Of a stretch of DNA of 24,000 nt, positions 15,112 to 23,746 are shown piece by piece. Location of the stretch: assembly GCA_016182845.1 (NCBI GenBank), contig JACPFT010000018.1, positions 10,617 through 34,616 on the forward strand, written 5' to 3'. Below the pieces are notes generated by a model, which had not been told where the DNA came from, ran no database searches, and saw only the letters and a program-made list of their open reading frames with translations. Numbering within the stretch: the stretch's first letter is position 1; each line of letters begins with the position of its first letter. The stretch is from Gammaproteobacteria bacterium (GTDB lineage Bacteria; Pseudomonadota; Gammaproteobacteria; Enterobacterales; Permianibacteraceae). The translations under genes were made by a program, and so were the position numbers.

Positions 15112-18100
15112 CTAGGGTTTGGCCATTTTCCCCGGGCGGTCCTGCCATTCCAGCCAAGTCGCTTGCGGCTTCTTGTGCAGGGCAAAGATCGCGCCCTCGG
15201 CGGCCTCCGGACTGGCCTTTTGCTCGGCCTCGGGATTGGCGAAGGCGATACCGCCGGCCACTAGGGCTTCCAGGGATTCGCTGCGCAGTTGCACGCCGCT
15301 GAACAGGCCGGCGCTGACCTCGAGGCCGCTGGCCTGCCAGAAGCGGCTGCTCTGACGCACGAGGGCCGCGTGTTTGGCGGGCAGATGCACATAGACGCGC
15401 ACGAGAACGCCGCCCTCGGCCAGTTCCGTGCCGATGATCTCGCCGACTTTCAGCTGGCGGTAGAGCAGGGGATCGCCGACCTTGAGGGAGCCCAGGCCCG
15501 GGGTTTCCAGCACCAGGTTGCGCCCCTCCGGTCGGCTGTGCACAACCGGTTCCTCGTCGGCGACGGTAAAGCTGTAACGCTCGGCGCCGATCCCGGCGCG
15601 CAGGGCGAGATAGCTGCCGGAGACCAGGGTGTCCAGGTGTTCGGTGCGGGCCAGCCCCAGGCTGGGCTTGACCCGCCAGATCTGGCTACCGTCGCGCAGC
15701 AGCGGCCTTGCGGTGGGTTTGACCAGGGCCTCGGCCAGCACCGCGCCGGACTTCTCCTCCAGTCCGATGCGGGCCAGCTCGCCGATGTCCACGCCCTGGT
15801 AGCGCAGGGGCGTGCCCACGGCGAGGCCCTCGGCGCTGGTCAGGCGCAGCTTGACCGGGAAACCGGCCAGCTCGGCCTGGGCGTGGTCGGCATAGAGCTT
15901 GTAGCGCTCGCCGTTCCTGGCCTTGGGGCCCGGCTTTCCGGCCTCGAAACCGTCGAAGGCCACGCCGCCGGCGATGATGGCGGCCAGGGATTCGGTACGG
16001 ATCTTGAGGCCGGACACGCCGCCGCGCACGTCGACGCCGCCGGCGCTCCAGAAGCGGGTATGAGCGTTCACTGCGCCGGCATGGGCCGGCTGGATATGGA
16101 TATGGGCCTGCACGGTCTTGCCGTCGGCGGCCAGGCGCACGTCCTGGATGCTGCCCACGGTCAGCTTCTTGTGCAGCACCGGCGCGCCCACGGTCAGTGA
16201 GCCGGCATCCGGGGCTTCGAGCAGCAGATGCAGGCCCGGCTCGCTCTGGGGCAGGGGCGGCGGGCCGTTGTGCGCCAGGAATTCCGTGGCGGGCTTGCCC
16301 GCTCCCGGCTGGACGGCGATATAGCTGCCGCTGAACAGGGCGTCCAGGCCGCTGACCCGGCTGGCGTTGATCTCCGGACGCACCAGCCAGAACTGGCAAG
16401 CCGTGGTCAGCATATGCTCGGCGCCGGGATTGATTCCCACATAGGCTTCGACGGTGCGGAAATCCTTGGAGACGTCCACGCGGTCCACCAGGCCGATGGG
16501 CAGGCCCCGGTAGATGACCTGGGTCTGGCCGGCCGTGAGTCCTTCGGCGGAGACGAAGCGCACTCGGATCTGCCGGCGGGCGCGGGCCGAGGCCTCGTCG
16601 CGGAACAGGCTGAAGCGGAAACCGTTGCCGACGGGCGGGGCCTTCCCGTCGACCTTGGGCGTGTCGAAGGCGATGCCGCCGGCCAAGAGGGTGGCCAGGG
16701 ACTCGGTACGCAGGCGCACGCCGGACAGGCCGGCGTTGAGGGTCACGCCGCTGACGTTCCAGAAGCGCGTGGACTCGTTCACCAGGTCCCGGTACTCGGG
16801 CTTGATCAGTAGGTGCACGTCCACCTTGTCGCGCTCGCGGTCCAGGGTGTAGCTGACCACCTCGCCCACCTGGACCTGGCGGTAGTAGATCGGCGACCCC
16901 TGGTTCAGGGAGCCGAGCTCCCTGCTGGTGAGCAGCAGGTGCAGGCCCGGTTCCCGGTAGTCGAGCGGCGAGGGGCCGTCGGCAGCGACGAACTCGCGCA
17001 CGCTCTGGCCGCTGTTGTCCGGGCTGAAGCTGATGTAGGTGCCGGTCAGGAGGGCGTCGAGGCCCGATACGCCGGCCACGGACAGCTGGGGCTTGACCAG
17101 CCAGAAGCGCGCGGCATCGGTCATGAAGGGCTCGGTGCGCGGGTCCATGCCCACCGTGGCCACCACCATGTCGGTGTTCTCGTCGTAATCCAGTTTCAAG
17201 ACCTTGCCGGCGGGCATGCCCTTGTAGATGACCTTGGTGCTGCCGGCGGTGAGGCTGGCGCCGCTGGCGAAGCGGATCCGGATGCGCAGCCCGGCCTCGG
17301 CGGCGTCGTAGTCGGGGTATAGGGTGTAGCGGTCGCCGTTGGTGCTGGGCGGCGCGCCCTCGTCGTTGGTGGACAGGGCGATGCCGCCGGACACGAGGCT
17401 GGCCAGGGACTCGGTCTCCACCGACAGGCCGGACAGGTTGGCGGAGACCTTGAGCCCGCTGGCGTTCCAGAAGCGCGAGGTCTTGCGCACGCGCTTGGCG
17501 TGTTCGGGCAGGATGTGCACGTCCATGCGTACGCCCCGGCCGTCCTCGCTCATGGCCGTGGACTGCACGGCGCCGATGGGGATCTGCCGATAGTAGATGG
17601 GCGTGCCCGGGGCGATGGAGCCCAGGCGCTCGGCCTGGAGCTGGATGTGCAGGCCCGGCGTGCTGGTGGGCAGGGGCGGCGCGGCTTTCAGGGCGGTGAA
17701 GCTCGTGCCCTCCGGTTTCTCGGCATCGCCCAGCTGGATGGCGATGTAGTTGCCGGAGAGCAGGGTGTTGAGGCCGGTCACGCCCGCCGCCGAGATCTGG
17801 GGCTGAACCAGCCAGAACTGGGAGTCTTCGGGAATGGCCTCCACCTGCTTCTCGAACTGCACCTCGGCCACGACCCCGGTCAGGTCCTCGAGCACGGTGA
17901 GCTGGCGCACGACGCCGAGCGGAATGCCCTTGTAGCGCACCTGGGTCTGGTTGACGGCGATGCCCTCGGCATTGTCGAAGCGCAGCTCGATGCGCGGCCC
18001 GGTGTTCAACAGGCTGCGCCAGACCAGCCAGAGGCCCACGGCCAGGGCCACCAGGGGCAGGACCCAGATGGGCGCGATGCGCGGGCGGTGGCGGACGCGG

Positions 18101-18135
18101 ACCGGCGGGATGGGCGGATCGATCGTTTCAGGCAT
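15112..18135 (-). CDS. Multi-MCE-domain lipid-transport protein (PqiB/LetB family), 8 MCE modules
   Basis: 1007 aa. N-terminal TM helix (IAPIWVLPLVALAVGLWLVW), then eight MCE-like modules in four alternating pairs. Odd modules end ...FWLV.P and even modules carry GSPIYYRQ..VG.V...RFWN.SG. The start overlaps the upstream pqiA-like gene by 8 nt. Confidence 0.9.
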   Translation of the reverse strand: MPETIDPPIPPVRVRHRPRIAPIWVLPLVALAVGLWLVWRSLLNTGPRIELRFDNAEGIAVNQTQVRYKGIPLGVVRQLTVLEDLTGVVAEVQFEKQVEAIPEDSQFWLVQPQISAAGVTGLNTLLSGNYIAIQLGDAEKPEGTSFTALKAAPPLPTSTPGLHIQLQAERLGSIAPGTPIYYRQIPIGAVQSTAMSEDGRGVRMDVHILPEHAKRVRKTSRFWNASGLKVSANLSGLSVETESLASLVSGGIALSTNDEGAPPSTNGDRYTLYPDYDAAEAGLRIRIRFASGASLTAGSTKVIYKGMPAGKVLKLDYDENTDMVVATVGMDPRTEPFMTDAARFWLVKPQLSVAGVSGLDALLTGTYISFSPDNSGQSVREFVAADGPSPLDYREPGLHLLLTSRELGSLNQGSPIYYRQVQVGEVVSYTLDRERDKVDVHLLIKPEYRDLVNESTRFWNVSGVTLNAGLSGVRLRTESLATLLAGGIAFDTPKVDGKAPPVGNGFRFSLFRDEASARARRQIRVRFVSAEGLTAGQTQVIYRGLPIGLVDRVDVSKDFRTVEAYVGINPGAEHMLTTACQFWLVRPEINASRVSGLDALFSGSYIAVQPGAGKPATEFLAHNGPPPLPQSEPGLHLLLEAPDAGSLTVGAPVLHKKLTVGSIQDVRLAADGKTVQAHIHIQPAHAGAVNAHTRFWSAGGVDVRGGVSGLKIRTESLAAIIAGGVAFDGFEAGKPGPKARNGERYKLYADHAQAELAGFPVKLRLTSAEGLAVGTPLRYQGVDIGELARIGLEEKSGAVLAEALVKPTARPLLRDGSQIWRVKPSLGLARTEHLDTLVSGSYLALRAGIGAERYSFTVADEEPVVHSRPEGRNLVLETPGLGSLKVGDPLLYRQLKVGEIIGTELAEGGVLVRVYVHLPAKHAALVRQSSRFWQASGLEVSAGLFSGVQLRSESLEALVAGGIAFANPEAEQKASPEAAEGAIFALHKKPQATWLEWQDRPGKMAKP

Positions 18136-18796
18136 GGGGAGGCTTCTCGTCGGAGTCGTTGTCGTCGCATGCTTCGTCAGCGGAATGGGCGTCCCAGATC
18201 AGGCGCGGATCGAAACTCTGGGCGGCGAACAGGGTGATGATCACGGTGGCCACGAAGGCCAGGGCGCCGAGGCCGGGCAGGACCAGGGCCACCTGGCCCA
18301 GGTGCACCAGGCCCACCAGCAGGGTGACCACGAAGATGTCCAGCATGGACCAGCGGCCGAGGAAGTCCACCAGGCGGAACAAGCGCGTGCGGTTCAGGGG
18401 GCAGAGTTCGGTTTGGTAATGCACGGAATAGAGTAGCAGGCAGAGGCCGAAGAGCTTGGCCAGCGGCACGACCACGCTGGCCACGAAGACGATGGTGGCG
18501 ATGCCCCATAGCCCCTGGCTCCATAGCTTGGCCACGCCGCCCACGATGGTGGAGGGCTCGCCGCGGCCGAACTGGAGGATGGTCATGATGGGGTAGAGAT
18601 TGGCCGGGATCAGGAACAAGAAACCCAGGACCACGTAGTACCCGGTTCGGCGCAGGCTATGGGGCTTGCGCAGGGCCAGCGCCGCGCCGCAGCGCCGGCA
18701 GGCGACGCGCCGGCCGGGCGGGCAGGGCGTCAGGGCATGGCAGGCCAGGCAGAGCCCCAGGCCCTCGGCGGCGGCGGTGCGCGGGCCGGCGCTCAT
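18128..18796 (-). CDS. PqiA/LetA-family integral membrane protein, single-repeat half-size (second half)
   Basis: 222 aa. Zinc-ribbon-like CLACH...CRRCG followed by multiple TM segments (YYVVLGFLFLIPANLYPIMT...). 4-nt overlap with the upstream gene. Confidence 0.85.
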   Translation of the reverse strand: MSAGPRTAAAEGLGLCLACHALTPCPPGRRVACRRCGAALALRKPHSLRRTGYYVVLGFLFLIPANLYPIMTILQFGRGEPSTIVGGVAKLWSQGLWGIATIVFVASVVVPLAKLFGLCLLLYSVHYQTELCPLNRTRLFRLVDFLGRWSMLDIFVVTLLVGLVHLGQVALVLPGLGALAFVATVIITLFAAQSFDPRLIWDAHSADEACDDNDSDEKPPHA

Positions 18797-19428
18797 GGCC
18801 TGGCCTCGCCGCCCAGGGCCTGCCAGAAATCGTGCTCGTCCACGGCCGATTCCAGGAGCAGGGTGCAGAGCATGAGGCCGATGAAGCAGTAAAGACCTAG
18901 GCCCACCACCAGCTCGGACATGTCAGCCAGCTTGATGATGGACACCAGGATGCCCAGCAGGAAGACCTCCAGCATGGACCATTCGCGGATGCGGTGATTG
19001 AGGCGCAGCAAGCTGGGCAGGATGCGCGGCCGATAGCGGCGCTTGAGACTCCAGGACACGCCGAACATCAGCCAGAGGTTGAGAAAAGGCGCGATCAGCG
19101 CCGAAACCGCCACTACCGAGGCCACTTCCGGAAAGCCGGCCTGGAACAGGGCGATGATGGCCTCCGTCAGCGAGGCGTCCTCGTGCACGCCCAGGAGGGT
19201 CATGGACAGCAAGGGCAGGCCCATGGCCGGGGCGAACAGGGCGAGGCCGGCGCTCGAGATCCAGAAAGCCCGGTTCAGGCTGTCGGCGCGGCCGCTGCGC
19301 ACCACCTCGCCGCAACGCGGGCAGCAGGCGTCCTGACCCCGGTTCAGGGGTTGGGCGGCGAGCAGCAGATCGCAGGCCGGGCAGGCGTGCAACTGATCGA
19401 GCGGGGGCGTGGCGGGAGATGCGTCCAT
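18793..19428 (-). CDS. PqiA/LetA-family integral membrane protein, single-repeat half-size (first half)
   Basis: 211 aa. CPACD...CPRCG zinc-ribbon-like motif, then TM segments. It is the first gene of the three-gene operon. Confidence 0.85.
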   Translation of the reverse strand: MDASPATPPLDQLHACPACDLLLAAQPLNRGQDACCPRCGEVVRSGRADSLNRAFWISSAGLALFAPAMGLPLLSMTLLGVHEDASLTEAIIALFQAGFPEVASVVAVSALIAPFLNLWLMFGVSWSLKRRYRPRILPSLLRLNHRIREWSMLEVFLLGILVSIIKLADMSELVVGLGLYCFIGLMLCTLLLESAVDEHDFWQALGGEARP

Positions 19429-19565
19429 GACGAATAGTGTATGAAGATGTCCTTATTTTATCGGCGGATACCTGAACCGTGGGGTTTTCCTGCATCGGGC
19501 AAACTATTTTCCAATTCTGGGCGGCATGGGGAGTTCAGCAATCACGAGCACAAGGAACGCCGTCC

Positions 19566-19740
19566 ATGCCTGTTTCCCGCGCCCTCCTCGTCTCGGCGCT
19601 GTGCCTCCTGAGCATGGCTACCGCGCAAGCGGAAGTCCGCTTGAGCCGCGAGGCCTTGCAACAGGATCTGGATGCCTTGCGCGCCGGCATCGCCAGCACC
19701 CACCCGGAGCCCGGCTATACCGTGGCGGCGGAGAGGGCCA
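19566..19740 (+). pseudogene. Possible 5' remnant of a secreted protein gene (signal peptide plus an S41-peptidase-like N-terminal stretch)
   Basis: MPVSRALLVSALCLLSMATAQA-EVRLSREALQQDLDALRAGIASTHPEPGY looks like a genuine secreted-protein N-terminus. The frame then degenerates into Arg/Cys/Trp-rich sequence and stops at 19895. The remnant interpretation is weak. Confidence 0.3.
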
Positions 19741-19884
19741 GGCGCTGCTGCCGCCGGAGCTGGTCCTGGACGACGAGCCGGCGGCGCCGGGCAAGGCGGT
19801 GGCGGAGCTGCTGCTCCATGCGCGCGGCTCGGGCCAGGGGGCACGCGCGCGCTAGCGGCGCTTTGTGTTGGCCGCGCGCGGGGG

Positions 19885-21396
19885 ATGCTTGCTAGACTAG
19901 CGGCTTTTCCGCCAGTCCTATCTGCCGTGGCCGACACCGATTCCGACAAGCTCCAGACTTTCGCTCCCGATTCCGCGCACTACTGGCCGACCCGCTTGGG
20001 CTTAGGCCTGTTGCGCCTGACGGCGCGCCTGCCCTATCGCTGGCAGTACGGCCTGGGCGTGGCCTTGGGCGAGCTGATGTTTCGCTGCGCCCGGGGCCGG
20101 CGCGCCATCGCCGACACCAATCTGCGGATGTGCTTTCCCGAGCTCTCGGCGGGTCAGCGGCGCGAGCTGTTGCGCGAGAACATGCATGCCACGGGCATCG
20201 GCCTCGTGGAGGTGGGCACCAGTTGGTGGACGCCGGATGCGCGCCTGCGGCCGATCACGGAGATTCGTGGCCGGGAGCATCTGGACGCGGCCCTGGCGGG
20301 GGGCAAGGGCGCCATCCTGCTGTCCTATCATTTCACCAGCCTGGAGCTTTGCGGCCATCTGCTGGCGCGGGCCGTGGATCTGGTCGCCATGTACCGGCCT
20401 CACCCCAATCCGGTCTTCGACGCCCAGATGCTGGCCGGGCGCGAGCGCAGCGCCAAGCGCGCCATCCCCCGCGACGACGTGCGTGGGGCGGTCAAGGCCC
20501 TGAAGGGCAATCTGCCGCTCTGGTACGCCGCCGACCAGGACTACGGCCGCAAGCATTCCATCTTCGTGCCCTTCTTCGGCATCCCCGCCGCCACCATCAC
20601 CGCCACCAGCCGCTTCGCCCGGCTGTCGGGCGCGCCGGTCGTGCCCTTCACCCACCGCCGCCTGTCCGGCGGGCGCGGCTTCGTGCTGGAGCTGCATGCC
20701 CCGCTCACCGGCATGGGCCGGGGCGACGATGTGGCCGATGCGCGCGCCGTCAATGCCGTGCTGGAAGACTGGCTGCGCCGCTACCCGGCCGACTACCTGT
20801 GGCTGCACCGCCGTTTCAAGACCCGGCCCGAGGGCGAGGCGGGGGTCTATGGCGAGGATCGAAAGCATCGCGACCGCCTGTCCGCCAAGCGCCTGGACAA
20901 GTGGCTGGCCGGCGCCGAGCGCCTGCTGGCCCGGGAAGACTTCCAGTTGTACCGCCAGGCCGACGGTGGCTGGCTGGCCTTGCATCCGCGCCCCAGGGGC
21001 TGGCGCGCGCTCTTCGCCCGGCCGGCCGCCGCCCATGAGCGTGCCCAGGCGCGGCTCGAGGCCCTGGGGCTGCCGGTCCTCCCGGCCGATGATTTCCGCT
21101 TCTGCCCCAGCCGGAACTGCGATGTGCGCCTGCTGCCCGCCGAGGCCGGCGCCGCGCCCCTCCAGGGTGTGGCGGAGTCGCCGGAGGCTCTGCGAAGGCT
21201 GGACGAGTTCCTGCACTTGCTGGACCGCTCCGGGGTGTTCCTGCCGCCCGAGGCTTGGCTGCTCGACGGGATGGGGGCCTACCGCATCGCCCATCCGGCG
21301 GCCTGCCGGTTCGAGCAGACGGGGGTGTTGGCACGGCTGCTGGCGGCCCTGCCGGATGCGCTGCGCCTGGCCCTGAACGCCCGGGTGTCGCCATGA
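19885..21396 (+). CDS. lpxL: Lipid A biosynthesis lauroyl/myristoyl acyltransferase (LpxL/LpxM family) fused to an unassigned C-terminal domain of about 190 aa
   Basis: Residues FAPDSAHYWPTRLG...NLRMCFPELS...ILLSYHFTSLEL...MYRP..NP.FD...R......IPRDD.....KALKGN..LWYAADQDYG....FVPFFG..AAT.T...R.A.LSGAPVVPF...R...G.G...........YLWLHRRFKTRPEG are colinear with E. coli LpxL, which ends right after RFKTRPEG. Here the frame continues with high GC3 for about 190 more codons. The start is uncertain: ATG 19885, GTG 19927 or further upstream. Confidence 0.8.
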   Translation: MLARLAAFPPVLSAVADTDSDKLQTFAPDSAHYWPTRLGLGLLRLTARLPYRWQYGLGVALGELMFRCARGRRAIADTNLRMCFPELSAGQRRELLRENMHATGIGLVEVGTSWWTPDARLRPITEIRGREHLDAALAGGKGAILLSYHFTSLELCGHLLARAVDLVAMYRPHPNPVFDAQMLAGRERSAKRAIPRDDVRGAVKALKGNLPLWYAADQDYGRKHSIFVPFFGIPAATITATSRFARLSGAPVVPFTHRRLSGGRGFVLELHAPLTGMGRGDDVADARAVNAVLEDWLRRYPADYLWLHRRFKTRPEGEAGVYGEDRKHRDRLSAKRLDKWLAGAERLLAREDFQLYRQADGGWLALHPRPRGWRALFARPAAAHERAQARLEALGLPVLPADDFRFCPSRNCDVRLLPAEAGAAPLQGVAESPEALRRLDEFLHLLDRSGVFLPPEAWLLDGMGAYRIAHPAACRFEQTGVLARLLAALPDALRLALNARVSP

Positions 21397-22841
21397 GCCG
21401 GCTGCCTGCCTGGTGCACGCCGGGCCTGGCGGCCGTACTGGCCAGCGCGCTGCTCTCGGCCCTGGCCTGGCTTCTAGCCGGCGCGCCCAACGACGATGGC
21501 ATCCTTTACCTGTTGACCGCCCGGGAGTTCCCGCTCGGCGGCTGGCACGCGGCCTTCGAGGCCTATGGCTGGCCGTTCTATTCCGTGTTGCTGGCGGGCC
21601 TGAGCGGCCTGGGTCTGCCCCTGGAAACCGCGGGACAGCTGCTCAATCTGGGCAGCTTCGCCCTTCTGGCCTGGGCCTTTGTCGGCGTGGTGCGCGAGCT
21701 CTATCCCGAGCGACCGGCTTGGGCCTGGCTGGCCGTGCCCGTGGTGATCTTGCTGCCCGAACTCAATGCCCAGCGGGCCGATTTGATCCGCGACAATGCT
21801 TATCTGGCCTTCTGGTTGCTGTCCCTGTGGGCCTTGCTGCGCCTGGCCCGGCAACCCGGCCCGGGCCGCTTCGCCGCCTGGCTAGCTTGCCTGGCCCTGG
21901 CCCAGGCCTTCCGCCTGGAGGCGGTGGCCTTCGTGCTCTGCGGCGCCCTGGCCCTGGCGGCCCAGCCCCGGACCCGCCGCCTGGGCTTGGCCCTCGGCGT
22001 GGTTCTGCTCGTGATCCTGCCGCTCTTGGCCTGGATTCTGCCCCGCTTCATGCCGGCCAGCCGCCTGGCGGATTTCGGCCTGTGGTGGCAGGAGCTGCGC
22101 CACCAGGCCCCGGCCCAGTTCCTGGCCGCCAGCGAGCGCCTGGGGGCGGCGGTGCTGAATCAATATTCCCAGGGCTTCGAGCGGGAGGCCTATCTGGCCG
22201 TGCTGTTGACGGTCCTGGCGGGCAAGCTGCTCAAGATCTGGACACCGGTGCACGCGCTCTGCCTCTGGCTGGGGCGCCGGGGCCTGGCCTGGGCGTCGCT
22301 GCCGGCCGCCTGGCGCGGCTATGCCCTCGCGGCCCTGCTCCTGCCCCTGATTTTCGTGTTGTTCCGGCAGTTCCTGACGGCGCGCTTCCTCATGCCCCTG
22401 GTCCTCTGCCTGCTGCTGCTGGCGCCGCCGGTCCTGGCCGAGCTGGCGCGGCGGCTGGCGACCCGGCCGAGGCTGCTGTGCGTCCTGGCCCTGGGCCTGG
22501 GCCTGCTGTTCCTGGGCGGCAGCCTGCGCCAGCTGCGCGACGACGATCGGGCCCTGGTCGAGGCGGGGCGCTGGCTAGCGGCCCAGCCGGGCGACCTGTG
22601 GACCAATCACTCGGCGCTTAGCTATTACGCCGGGCGCAACACGGCGCAGCAGCATGTGCATGGCGCCTGGCGGGCCTGGCGCGAGCAAATGCCCGCCAAC
22701 ACGCGGCCGGGCTGGCGGGCCCTGGCCCTGAGCGGCAAGGAGCGCCGCGAGGCCGACGCCTGGCTGGCTCGCCTGGGCGGACGGGAAGTGCGCCGCTTCG
22801 AGGACGGCAAATACCTGGTCATCGTGACCCAGCGGGAATGA
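21393..22841 (+). CDS. GT-C fold membrane glycosyltransferase (family 39 / ArnT-PMT_2-like)
   Basis: 482 aa. About 11-12 hydrophobic segments. Acidic first-loop motif APNDDGILY. C-terminal soluble domain. The ATG overlaps the lpxL-like stop (ATGA at 21393-21396). Confidence 0.7.
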   Translation: MSRLPAWCTPGLAAVLASALLSALAWLLAGAPNDDGILYLLTAREFPLGGWHAAFEAYGWPFYSVLLAGLSGLGLPLETAGQLLNLGSFALLAWAFVGVVRELYPERPAWAWLAVPVVILLPELNAQRADLIRDNAYLAFWLLSLWALLRLARQPGPGRFAAWLACLALAQAFRLEAVAFVLCGALALAAQPRTRRLGLALGVVLLVILPLLAWILPRFMPASRLADFGLWWQELRHQAPAQFLAASERLGAAVLNQYSQGFEREAYLAVLLTVLAGKLLKIWTPVHALCLWLGRRGLAWASLPAAWRGYALAALLLPLIFVLFRQFLTARFLMPLVLCLLLLAPPVLAELARRLATRPRLLCVLALGLGLLFLGGSLRQLRDDDRALVEAGRWLAAQPGDLWTNHSALSYYAGRNTAQQHVHGAWRAWREQMPANTRPGWRALALSGKERREADAWLARLGGREVRRFEDGKYLVIVTQRE

Positions 22842-23746
22842 ACATGCCTTTTTTCTCCATCATCATCCCGGCCTATAACGCCGGCCGGTTCATCGACCGG
22901 GCCCTGGGGTCTTTGGCGGCGCAGGCATGCCAGGACTTCGAGACCATCGTGGTGGACGACGGTTCCGCCGACGACACTCTGATGCGTGTTCGAGGCTGGC
23001 AGGAGCGCCTGCCGGCGCTCAAGATCCTGTCCCAGGCCAACGCCGGGCCCGGCGCGGCGCGCAACGCGGGGCTGTCCAGGGCGACGGGCCGCTTCGTGCT
23101 GTTCCTGGATGCGGATGACGAGCTCCTGCCTGAGGGCTTGAGCGCCCTGCGCGCCGTGTGCGAGGCCAGTCCGGAAGCCCAGCTGGTCTATGCCAGCTAT
23201 GTCACCTGCAAGCCCGAGGGCAAGGAGAAGCTCCGCCTGGCCAGCGCGCCGCCGGCGGGCAGGGTCGCGCGCTTCGGCGCCTATCTGCGCCGACAGCTGA
23301 CCGGGGTCGGCAACAAGCACACGATCCTGCGGCGCGATGCGCTCGGCGGACTGCGCTTTCCCGAGGGTATACGCAACAACGAGGACCTGGTGTTCTACGC
23401 CCACGCCCTGGCGCGGATGGAGGCCCAGGTCTGCCCCAAAGCCGTGGCGCGCGTGCACCATCGGCCCGACAGCCTGCGCCATGACCTGCAATCGGCCATG
23501 GACGGGCTGGCGAAGGTCAGCGACCTGCTCTTCGACGCTAGCTGTCTGAGTCCCGAGTTCCTGAGTTTTCGGCGAGAGTTCGAGAGCGGGCGCCTCATGG
23601 CGCTGGGTGCGAGGCTGGCCAGCGGCGGGCTGCATCGGCAGGCGAGCGGCTGCTATCGGCGGGCCTTCCGGTTGTGGCCCGGCCTGTGGTGCCAGGGGAA
23701 GGCGCTGCGCCGCCTGTTGCGCAGCCTGGGACGGGGCGACCGCTAG
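22838..23746 (+). CDS. Family 2 glycosyltransferase
   Basis: FSIIIPAYNAGRFIDRALGSLAAQACQDFETIVVDDGSADDT...FLDADDEL is the classic GT2 (GT-A, DxD) N-terminus. The start ATG overlaps the preceding stop (ATGA at 22838-22841). Confidence 0.85.
   Translation: MNMPFFSIIIPAYNAGRFIDRALGSLAAQACQDFETIVVDDGSADDTLMRVRGWQERLPALKILSQANAGPGAARNAGLSRATGRFVLFLDADDELLPEGLSALRAVCEASPEAQLVYASYVTCKPEGKEKLRLASAPPAGRVARFGAYLRRQLTGVGNKHTILRRDALGGLRFPEGIRNNEDLVFYAHALARMEAQVCPKAVARVHHRPDSLRHDLQSAMDGLAKVSDLLFDASCLSPEFLSFRREFESGRLMALGARLASGGLHRQASGCYRRAFRLWPGLWCQGKALRRLLRSLGRGDR

Follow-up and report, generated by a model that had tools for sequence, protein, structure and literature searches.

On the cytoplasmic side of the inner membrane, KdkA and LpxL act one after the other on Kdo-lipid IVA. 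LpxL function depends on the phosphorylation of Kdo by KdkA in V. cholerae, H. influenzae and B. pertussis, and the acceptor of LpxL must carry Kdo or phospho-Kdo (PMC3178793). The heptose kinase WaaP of P. aeruginosa has a RIO-like fold and is bound to acyl-acyl carrier protein (acyl-ACP), which sub-domain II of its C-lobe binds tightly (PMC6147952). The characterised late acyltransferases E. coli LpxL and A. baumannii LpxM (5KN7) stop about 15-35 residues after the HRRFK motif and carry no extra domain. Here we describe an LpxL-type protein encoded in a 24,000-nucleotide stretch of DNA (the window) from a gammaproteobacterium of the family Permianibacteraceae, in which residues 32-322 resemble those enzymes by hidden Markov model (HMM) and fold, and are followed by a long C-terminal tail. 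We interpret this tail as a pseudokinase, the decayed remnant of a small KdkA/Bud32-like lipopolysaccharide (LPS) kinase that was joined in an ancestor to the end of LpxL and would now serve as a non-catalytic contact module, and we give this interpretation a probability of about three in four. Both parent superfamilies, the LpxL acyltransferases and the kinases, are already known; in the literature we found no description of LpxL joined to a pseudokinase or a Kdo-kinase.

Long C-terminal tails are present on many LpxL orthologues. A whole-protein search of 40 related genomes recovered tailed proteins in eight; in the sister genus Permianibacter six of nine genomes have one (122 to 241 residues, with one of the six cut at 101 residues by a contig end), and tails were also found in two genomes from other families of the order (104 and 127 residues). 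In pattern scans of public collections, 13 of the best 80 genome matches were tailed; these loci belong to Pleionea, Kangiellaceae, Permianibacter and several metagenome-assembled genomes, and most of the tails have 110-117 residues. Four more came from the best 79 usable metagenome matches, including one locus (L111) with a tail of 204 residues. Overall, tail length in the relatives ranges from 95 to 241 residues, and common to all of them is a linker motif, Y..R....[RK].[ST]..R.....L..A, followed by a module of about 95 residues. When compared with a profile of the other 21 sequences in our alignment of 22 LpxL tails (A2), the window's tail scored 95.7% (E 1e-8) in hhalign and 31 bits in hmmsearch, and by these profile comparisons it is a member of the same family. 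The relatives' tails are under purifying selection: in three close pairs the ratio of non-synonymous to synonymous substitution (dN/dS) was 0.14-0.20, close to that of the LpxL domain in the same genes, and in Permianibacter it was 0.19 for the N-part and 0.21 for the C-part of the tail.

The identity of the module became apparent through an intermediate family. Using the A2 profile against 400 genomes spread over the class, we found stand-alone proteins in four of them (E 3e-8 to 9e-5) with 216-259 residues in open frames of 221-265 codons. Judged by their motifs these proteins are plainly small kinases, having an invariant K47 on strand 3, LH131-132, a catalytic loop of the form LH..G[VI][YF]F.D.H..N with F138, D140, H142 and N145, and then [IL]D[IL] with D158; they also give repeated sub-threshold matches to KdkA, Bud32, RfaY/WaaY, APH, ABC1 and Pkinase, and are linked directly to KdkA by BLAST. 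Comparison of A2 with an alignment of the stand-alone kinases (A3, L204-L208) gave an hhalign probability of 97% (E 1.2e-10) over 93-95 co-linear columns, running from the N-terminal helix of the kinase through strand 5, and the match persisted at 96.1% (E 3.5e-9) when the window's tail was removed from A2. With the long tails only and a looser alignment setting, the co-linear match extended up to kinase position 170 (93%, E 3.5e-7). In addition, most tails and two of the kinases have in common a CxxxxCD hairpin that lies between strands 4 and 5. On the strength of these profile alignments, the first 95 or so residues of the tail are homologous to the N-lobe of this small LPS-associated kinase family.

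The predicted structure is consistent with this assignment. An AlphaFold model of the whole protein, built with a 56-sequence alignment (A1), has a mean predicted local distance difference test score (pLDDT) of 82.7, with 74-91 in residues 330-420, where the elements are arranged as a helix, three strands (345-349, 354-357 and 363-368), a long helix (380-393) and two strands (404-407 and 412-417). This order matches the N-lobe topology of three strands, helix C and two strands, and is shared with the KdkA (PRK01723)/Bud32/RIO/WaaY branch of kinases, which also provides the best sub-threshold matches of the intermediate family and resembles it in size (216-259 residues) and in LPS inner-core context; unlike that branch, the window's tail has no strand-3 lysine and no catalytic loop, has a truncated C-lobe and is fused to LpxL. 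The original prediction, made from the sequence alone, had suggested a degenerate kinase-like domain of the Kdo/WaaP type or otherwise a novel one. Its kinase part holds up through the match of A2 to intact kinases, while direct tests against the Pfam Kdo/WaaP model and against WaaP and KdkA alignments from relatives were negative, and the novel-domain alternative is not needed given the kinase-family match. Two motifs that it had singled out fall at meaningful places, ERAQARLEALGLPVLP aligning with helix C through strand 4 and FLHLLDRSGVF with the helix preceding the catalytic loop. The match to a known family therein is at superfamily level only, as no curated model recognises the tail.

A fusion in another genome joins the two halves of the argument. 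In the 535-residue protein of genome G554 (L233:2691-4298), an LpxL domain (Pfam Lip_A_acyltrans, 234 bits) precedes a full-length kinase-like domain (A3 profile E 6.5e-38, with a weak Pkinase match). In this kinase-like domain Ser replaces the catalytic Asp, and the lysine, LH, H..N and metal-binding Asp are all retained. The window's tail shares with the stand-alone kinases and with this fusion a homologous N-lobe with its N-terminal helix and CxxxxCD hairpin, and with the fusion the same domain order, but unlike them it has lost K47, the LH and the H..N loop, and its counterpart of the metal-binding Asp (D461) is of uncertain alignment. Permianibacter tails reach the same length as that of the G554 protein (241 residues counted from HRRFK) with every catalytic position replaced, Pleionea-type tails end directly after strand 5, and most tails consist of the N-lobe only. 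A stand-alone member in a high-GC genome (L234, G605:C12, 2602-3798, minus strand) has FRSLH in place of F.DLH, as does the G554 fusion, and the two may represent a sub-family in which Ser takes the place of the catalytic Asp. We also considered as further LpxL fusions 15 open reading frames (ORFs) of 455-536 residues from 15 genomes of the class (L235-L249), none of which has an LpxL domain; these match the C-lobe part of the small-kinase profile (E 1e-7 to 1e-12) and belong to another kinase family.

The stand-alone kinases were found in about 30 of the 400 sampled genomes of the class, and of four genomes inspected, three (G447, G684 and G605) have them near waaA or core genes, a waa neighbourhood that the original prediction had thought worth looking for. 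In G447 (L209, C3, 4789-8145), three small kinase-like genes in tandem (216, 232 and 243 residues) come directly after waaA, the first overlapping the waaA stop and the middle one having no Pfam or NCBIfam match and an A3 profile E of 1.8e-43. In G684 the kinase gene is a few kb from genes for a Wzy_C-type ligase and a GT4 glycosyltransferase, with a 938-residue ORF between, and in G605 it is divergent from waaA. A search with one of these kinases (L208) in an index of 5.8 billion proteins returned only itself. The small kinases adjacent to waaA and LPS-core genes are an unnamed family overlooked by current family libraries, and the module on LpxL is a domain family covered by no curated model in Pfam or NCBIfam.

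Alignment with the intact kinases indicates that the window's copy has lost residues required for catalysis (Table 1), in agreement with the earlier remark that the catalytic H.D...N residues are lacking: the loop that would carry D140, H142 and N145 is deleted. At the K47 position most other tails have Tyr or other residues, and Lys is aligned there in two short tails (L046 and L034). Since the lysine is lost, the catalytic loop deleted and the C-lobe vestigial, the tail domain is predicted to be unable to phosphorylate. It is almost certainly wrong, then, to see the tail as an active but unorthodox kinase on the ground that D461 aligns at the position of the metal-binding Asp, when the strand-3 lysine and the D140/H142/N145 loop are gone and H132 is changed.

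We propose that a small KdkA/Bud32-like LPS kinase was fused onto the C-terminus of an LpxL, and that the present tails would descend from a fusion like that of G554. The lineages can be arranged as a putative decay series, from G554 (nearly intact) through Permianibacter (full length, catalytic residues replaced) to Pleionea and Kangiellaceae (an N-lobe of about 95 residues only); the window's organism would have kept the N-lobe fold while losing the ATP-binding lysine and about 13 catalytic-loop residues and retaining a vestigial C-lobe. Because an N-lobe alone cannot form a nucleotide or acceptor cleft, protein contact is the likelier conserved function. The surviving N-lobe may thus be a non-catalytic protein-contact module that packs on the LpxL domain, or that docks LpxL to the enzymes finishing the inner core, with WaaA or a stand-alone core kinase (WaaP in the window genome, KdkA in Pleionea) as candidate partners. 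Such docking would keep late acylation physically coupled to completion of the inner core.

The best surviving alternative is that the dead kinase domain retains a ligand role, either reading the Kdo or phospho-sugar end of the acceptor or holding acyl-ACP with its C-lobe vestige as WaaP does. This would suit the requirement of LpxL enzymes for Kdo or phospho-Kdo on the acceptor (PMC3178793) and the tight acyl-ACP binding by sub-domain II of the WaaP C-lobe (PMC6147952), and it gains from the tails being mostly basic, as the stand-alone kinases are, and from the selection acting on the C-lobe-length sequence of the long tails. We nevertheless consider it unlikely, as most tails are N-lobes only, which can form neither the inter-lobe cleft nor the acyl tunnel of WaaP, and the C-part in the window is of low confidence with its loop region lost. 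WaaP is an LPS kinase of the same superfamily, but it has no detectable profile similarity to the tail, and the C-lobe sub-domain that houses its acyl-ACP tunnel is absent from the tail or has been lost there.

Several results weigh against the pseudokinase interpretation, and among them the negative family, PDB-profile and direct WaaP/KdkA comparisons would suit a second alternative, in which the tail would be a novel domain without kinase ancestry, its profile match reflecting a chance likeness of small alpha/beta modules. The tail has no Pfam or NCBIfam match, and Pfam searches with the tails of eight relatives and with all 22 members of A2 were likewise negative. In a word-indexed search of 5.8 billion proteins its sole match was its own 503-residue protein, phmmer against 1.84 billion cluster representatives also returned its own protein only, and matches in 400 genomes of the same order were at noise level. 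A sequence-profile search of PDB with A2 found nothing at E 10. The Kdo/WaaP (PF06293) and KdkA (PRK01723) models matched neither the window's tail nor any of the 22 tails, and hhalign gave no significant match between the tails and alignments of WaaP or KdkA built from relatives (probability <1%), so that for these two families the tail reaches no curated threshold and no significant direct profile match. Foldseek against PDB with the whole model listed acyltransferases only (LpxM and PatA), the acyltransferase domain filling the list. In the viral library of Foldseek, eight of the top 50 matches were small protein kinases, individually insignificant (E 0.03-1.2) with poor TM-scores, and this enrichment in the predicted model's matches is suggestive only. 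As a single sequence the window's tail (67-133) matched the kinases (69-138) at 69.5% (E 4e-5), and the A3 profile did not recover it from the window's own genome at E 0.01. Residues 420-503 have a low pLDDT (31-60) and no independent statistical support, the C-part alone giving E 0.03-0.06 against the kinases, which is not significant, with the expected helix before the catalytic loop as its best local match. Finally, selection was measured on the relatives' tails, the window genome having no close relative, and it is through a single intermediate family that the tail is tied to named kinases. An unrelated domain is nonetheless very improbable given a profile-profile E of 1e-10 over 95 co-linear columns that survives removal of the window's sequence, a CxxxxCD hairpin and N-terminal helix common to tails and kinases, the G554 protein with its unmistakable kinase domain at the same LpxL position, and the enrichment of kinases among the viral matches.

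A third alternative is that the tail, or its last 80 residues, is functionless read-through, decaying sequence or an assembly error in the window genome. Tail length does differ widely among lineages, pLDDT falls below 60 beyond residue 420, the window genome offers no close relative for measuring selection, and long chance ORFs are common at 70% GC. Against this, the lpxL frame stays open after ...LWLHRRFKTRPEGE until its TGA stop (21394-21396), and this stop and the start of the next gene (ATG at 21393) overlap in a precise junction. The GC content of the extension at the three codon positions (0.81/0.52/0.89) is of the same coding type as that of the LpxL domain (0.70/0.52/0.87) and of the downstream genes; all four quarters of the extension show this second- and third-position pattern, with third-position values (GC3) of 0.87-0.92 in each. 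Furthermore, the module is in-frame and under purifying selection in relatives, including the C-part in Permianibacter, and the L111 locus agrees with the window in both its tail type and its downstream gene. We conclude that the tail is a translated, conserved domain, and regard the read-through explanation as hardly tenable. The continuous frame, the strong GC3 bias and the ATGA overlap were all part of the original prediction and were borne out; its extension of about 190 residues proved too long, as it had placed the natural end of LpxL at ...RFKTRPEG. Among 142 tail-less relatives the C-terminus lies 15-35 residues beyond HRRFK, which leaves about 170-180 residues (about 325 to 503) as the true addition. 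A hidden frameshift at the junction, which had been raised as a possible source of the apparent fusion, is unlikely to judge from the alignments, because the linker motif (Y..R....RLS.KRLDK.L) and the following module are kept in the same frame among relatives.

Table 1. Features of the tailed lpxL locus in the window, followed by key positions of the stand-alone kinases and their aligned state in the window's tail
Feature	Position	Strand	Detail or aligned state	Basis
Whole gene, LpxL-type late acyltransferase with C-terminal tail	19885..21396	+	503 residues plus stop	ORF list, translation, sequence
LpxL/LpxP acyltransferase domain	19978..20850	+	Residues 32-322; H-x4-E motif at H149	Pfam, NCBIfam, alignment, AlphaFold, Foldseek
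Ordinary LpxL C-terminal end and basic linker	20830..20868	+	Residues 316-328, including invariant Y322	Tail-less relatives; alignments A1 and A2
Kinase N-lobe-like module	20869..21147	+	Residues 329-421; N-terminal helix, three strands, helix C, two strands, CxxxxCD hairpin	hhalign, hmmsearch, AlphaFold
Probable kinase C-lobe vestige	21148..21393	+	Residues 422-503; helix 433-448 matches that preceding the catalytic loop; modelled with low confidence	hhalign, AlphaFold
Missing catalytic loop	21247..21252	+	Between P455 and E456; about 13 residues absent	Combined alignment (kinases, G554 fusion, tails); hhalign
ATGA stop/start overlap with downstream gene	21393..21396	+		Sequence
Downstream multi-pass membrane protein, weak GT-C/PMT_2 match	21393..22841	+		Pfam PMT_2 E 0.0019, below threshold
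GT2 glycosyltransferase	22838..23746	+	ATGA-coupled	Pfam Glycos_transf_2, 98 bits
K47 (strand-3 ATP-anchoring lysine)			Ala (Ala or Leu by alignment)	
H132			Asp	
F138			Leu	
D140, H142, N145 (catalytic loop)			Absent, about 13 residues missing	
D158 (metal-binding Asp, DFG equivalent)			D461 nearby; aligned in MAFFT, one column off in hhalign, low-confidence region	

Apart from its tail, the protein is a standard late acyltransferase by HMM and fold over residues 32-322, with a predicted activity of acyl-ACP-dependent acylation of Kdo-lipid IVA. Pfam Lip_A_acyltrans (PF03279) matches residues 32-313 at 230 bits (cut-off 22.3) and the NCBIfam LpxL/LpxP model (TIGR02207) matches residues 32-322 at 325 bits (cut-off 297.8). 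The catalytic dyad H-x4-D/E is present as HFTSLE, with H149 invariant in A1 and Y322 invariant in both A1 and A2. The domain is modelled with pLDDT >90, and its GPAT/LPLAT fold is reflected in the Foldseek match of the whole model to LpxM (5KN7, E 2.8e-16) and to PatA. A second LpxL-family paralogue in the window genome is without such a C-terminal module. The lpxL frame is open from 19672, and the likely start is the ATG at 19885, as the frame 5' of it has a non-coding composition (0.85/0.90/0.59 at the three codon positions) that gives way to a gene-like pattern from this ATG on. The interval before it (19429-19884) has a signal-peptide-like ORF start at 19567 and thereafter a non-coding composition (GC3 0.59-0.64 and second-position GC 0.87-0.90, every forward frame checked), which favours an lpxL start at 19885; the interval has the look of a gene remnant lying between the pqiA-like gene and lpxL.

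The surroundings of lpxL are rich in envelope genes. Positions 15112-19428 on the minus strand hold two separate PqiA-like genes (210 and 221 residues) and a 1006-residue protein with seven MlaD/MCE stretches in Pfam; immediately upstream of lpxL, they make up a split lipid transport operon of the PqiA/LetA type. A homologue of the downstream membrane protein follows the tailed lpxL in L111 (1864-3282), and among 143 tail-less lpxL loci 36 have one within the flanks retrieved, suggesting a recurrent lpxL/GT-C gene pair. The window genome has a WaaP orthologue on another contig (C4:67546-68187; RfaP model, 310 bits) with two weaker matches of Kdo-family kinase type behind it (G000:C4:67546-69640 for the whole group), a layout that resembles the Pseudomonas core kinase cluster, and KdkA was not found in this genome. 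Within the family, when tail-less relatives (G001, G003 and G005) were compared with tailed ones (G002, G004 and G006-G009), the seven genomes with a tailed LpxL were found to have WaaP and the three tail-less ones to be without a strong Kdo-family kinase; these genomes are close kin, and the co-occurrence is only a hint that tailed LpxL goes with WaaP within the family. In several Permianibacter genomes waaP is 2-7 kb from lpxL. A link of the tail to one type of core kinase was dropped, given that tailed Permianibacteraceae have WaaP and tailed Pleionea and Kangiellaceae have KdkA. The core kinase thus differs among tailed lineages, and the partner of the tail, if it has any, is not fixed.

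The pseudokinase interpretation bears on how LPS assembly is organised. That LpxL has been fused recurrently to a Kdo-type kinase, nearly intact in one lineage, dead in others and trimmed to the N-lobe in others, speaks for physical contact between the two activities, and the lineages provide a natural set for testing what a non-catalytic remnant does. A more far-reaching proposal, which we offer only tentatively, is that the dead module gates late lipid A acylation as a regulatory reader or docking domain, binding WaaP/KdkA or WaaA, or sensing the phosphorylated inner core. If this were true, there would be a physical checkpoint complex between completion of the inner core and maturation of lipid A, and the series from intact to dead to N-lobe-only tails would record an enzyme becoming a scaffold.

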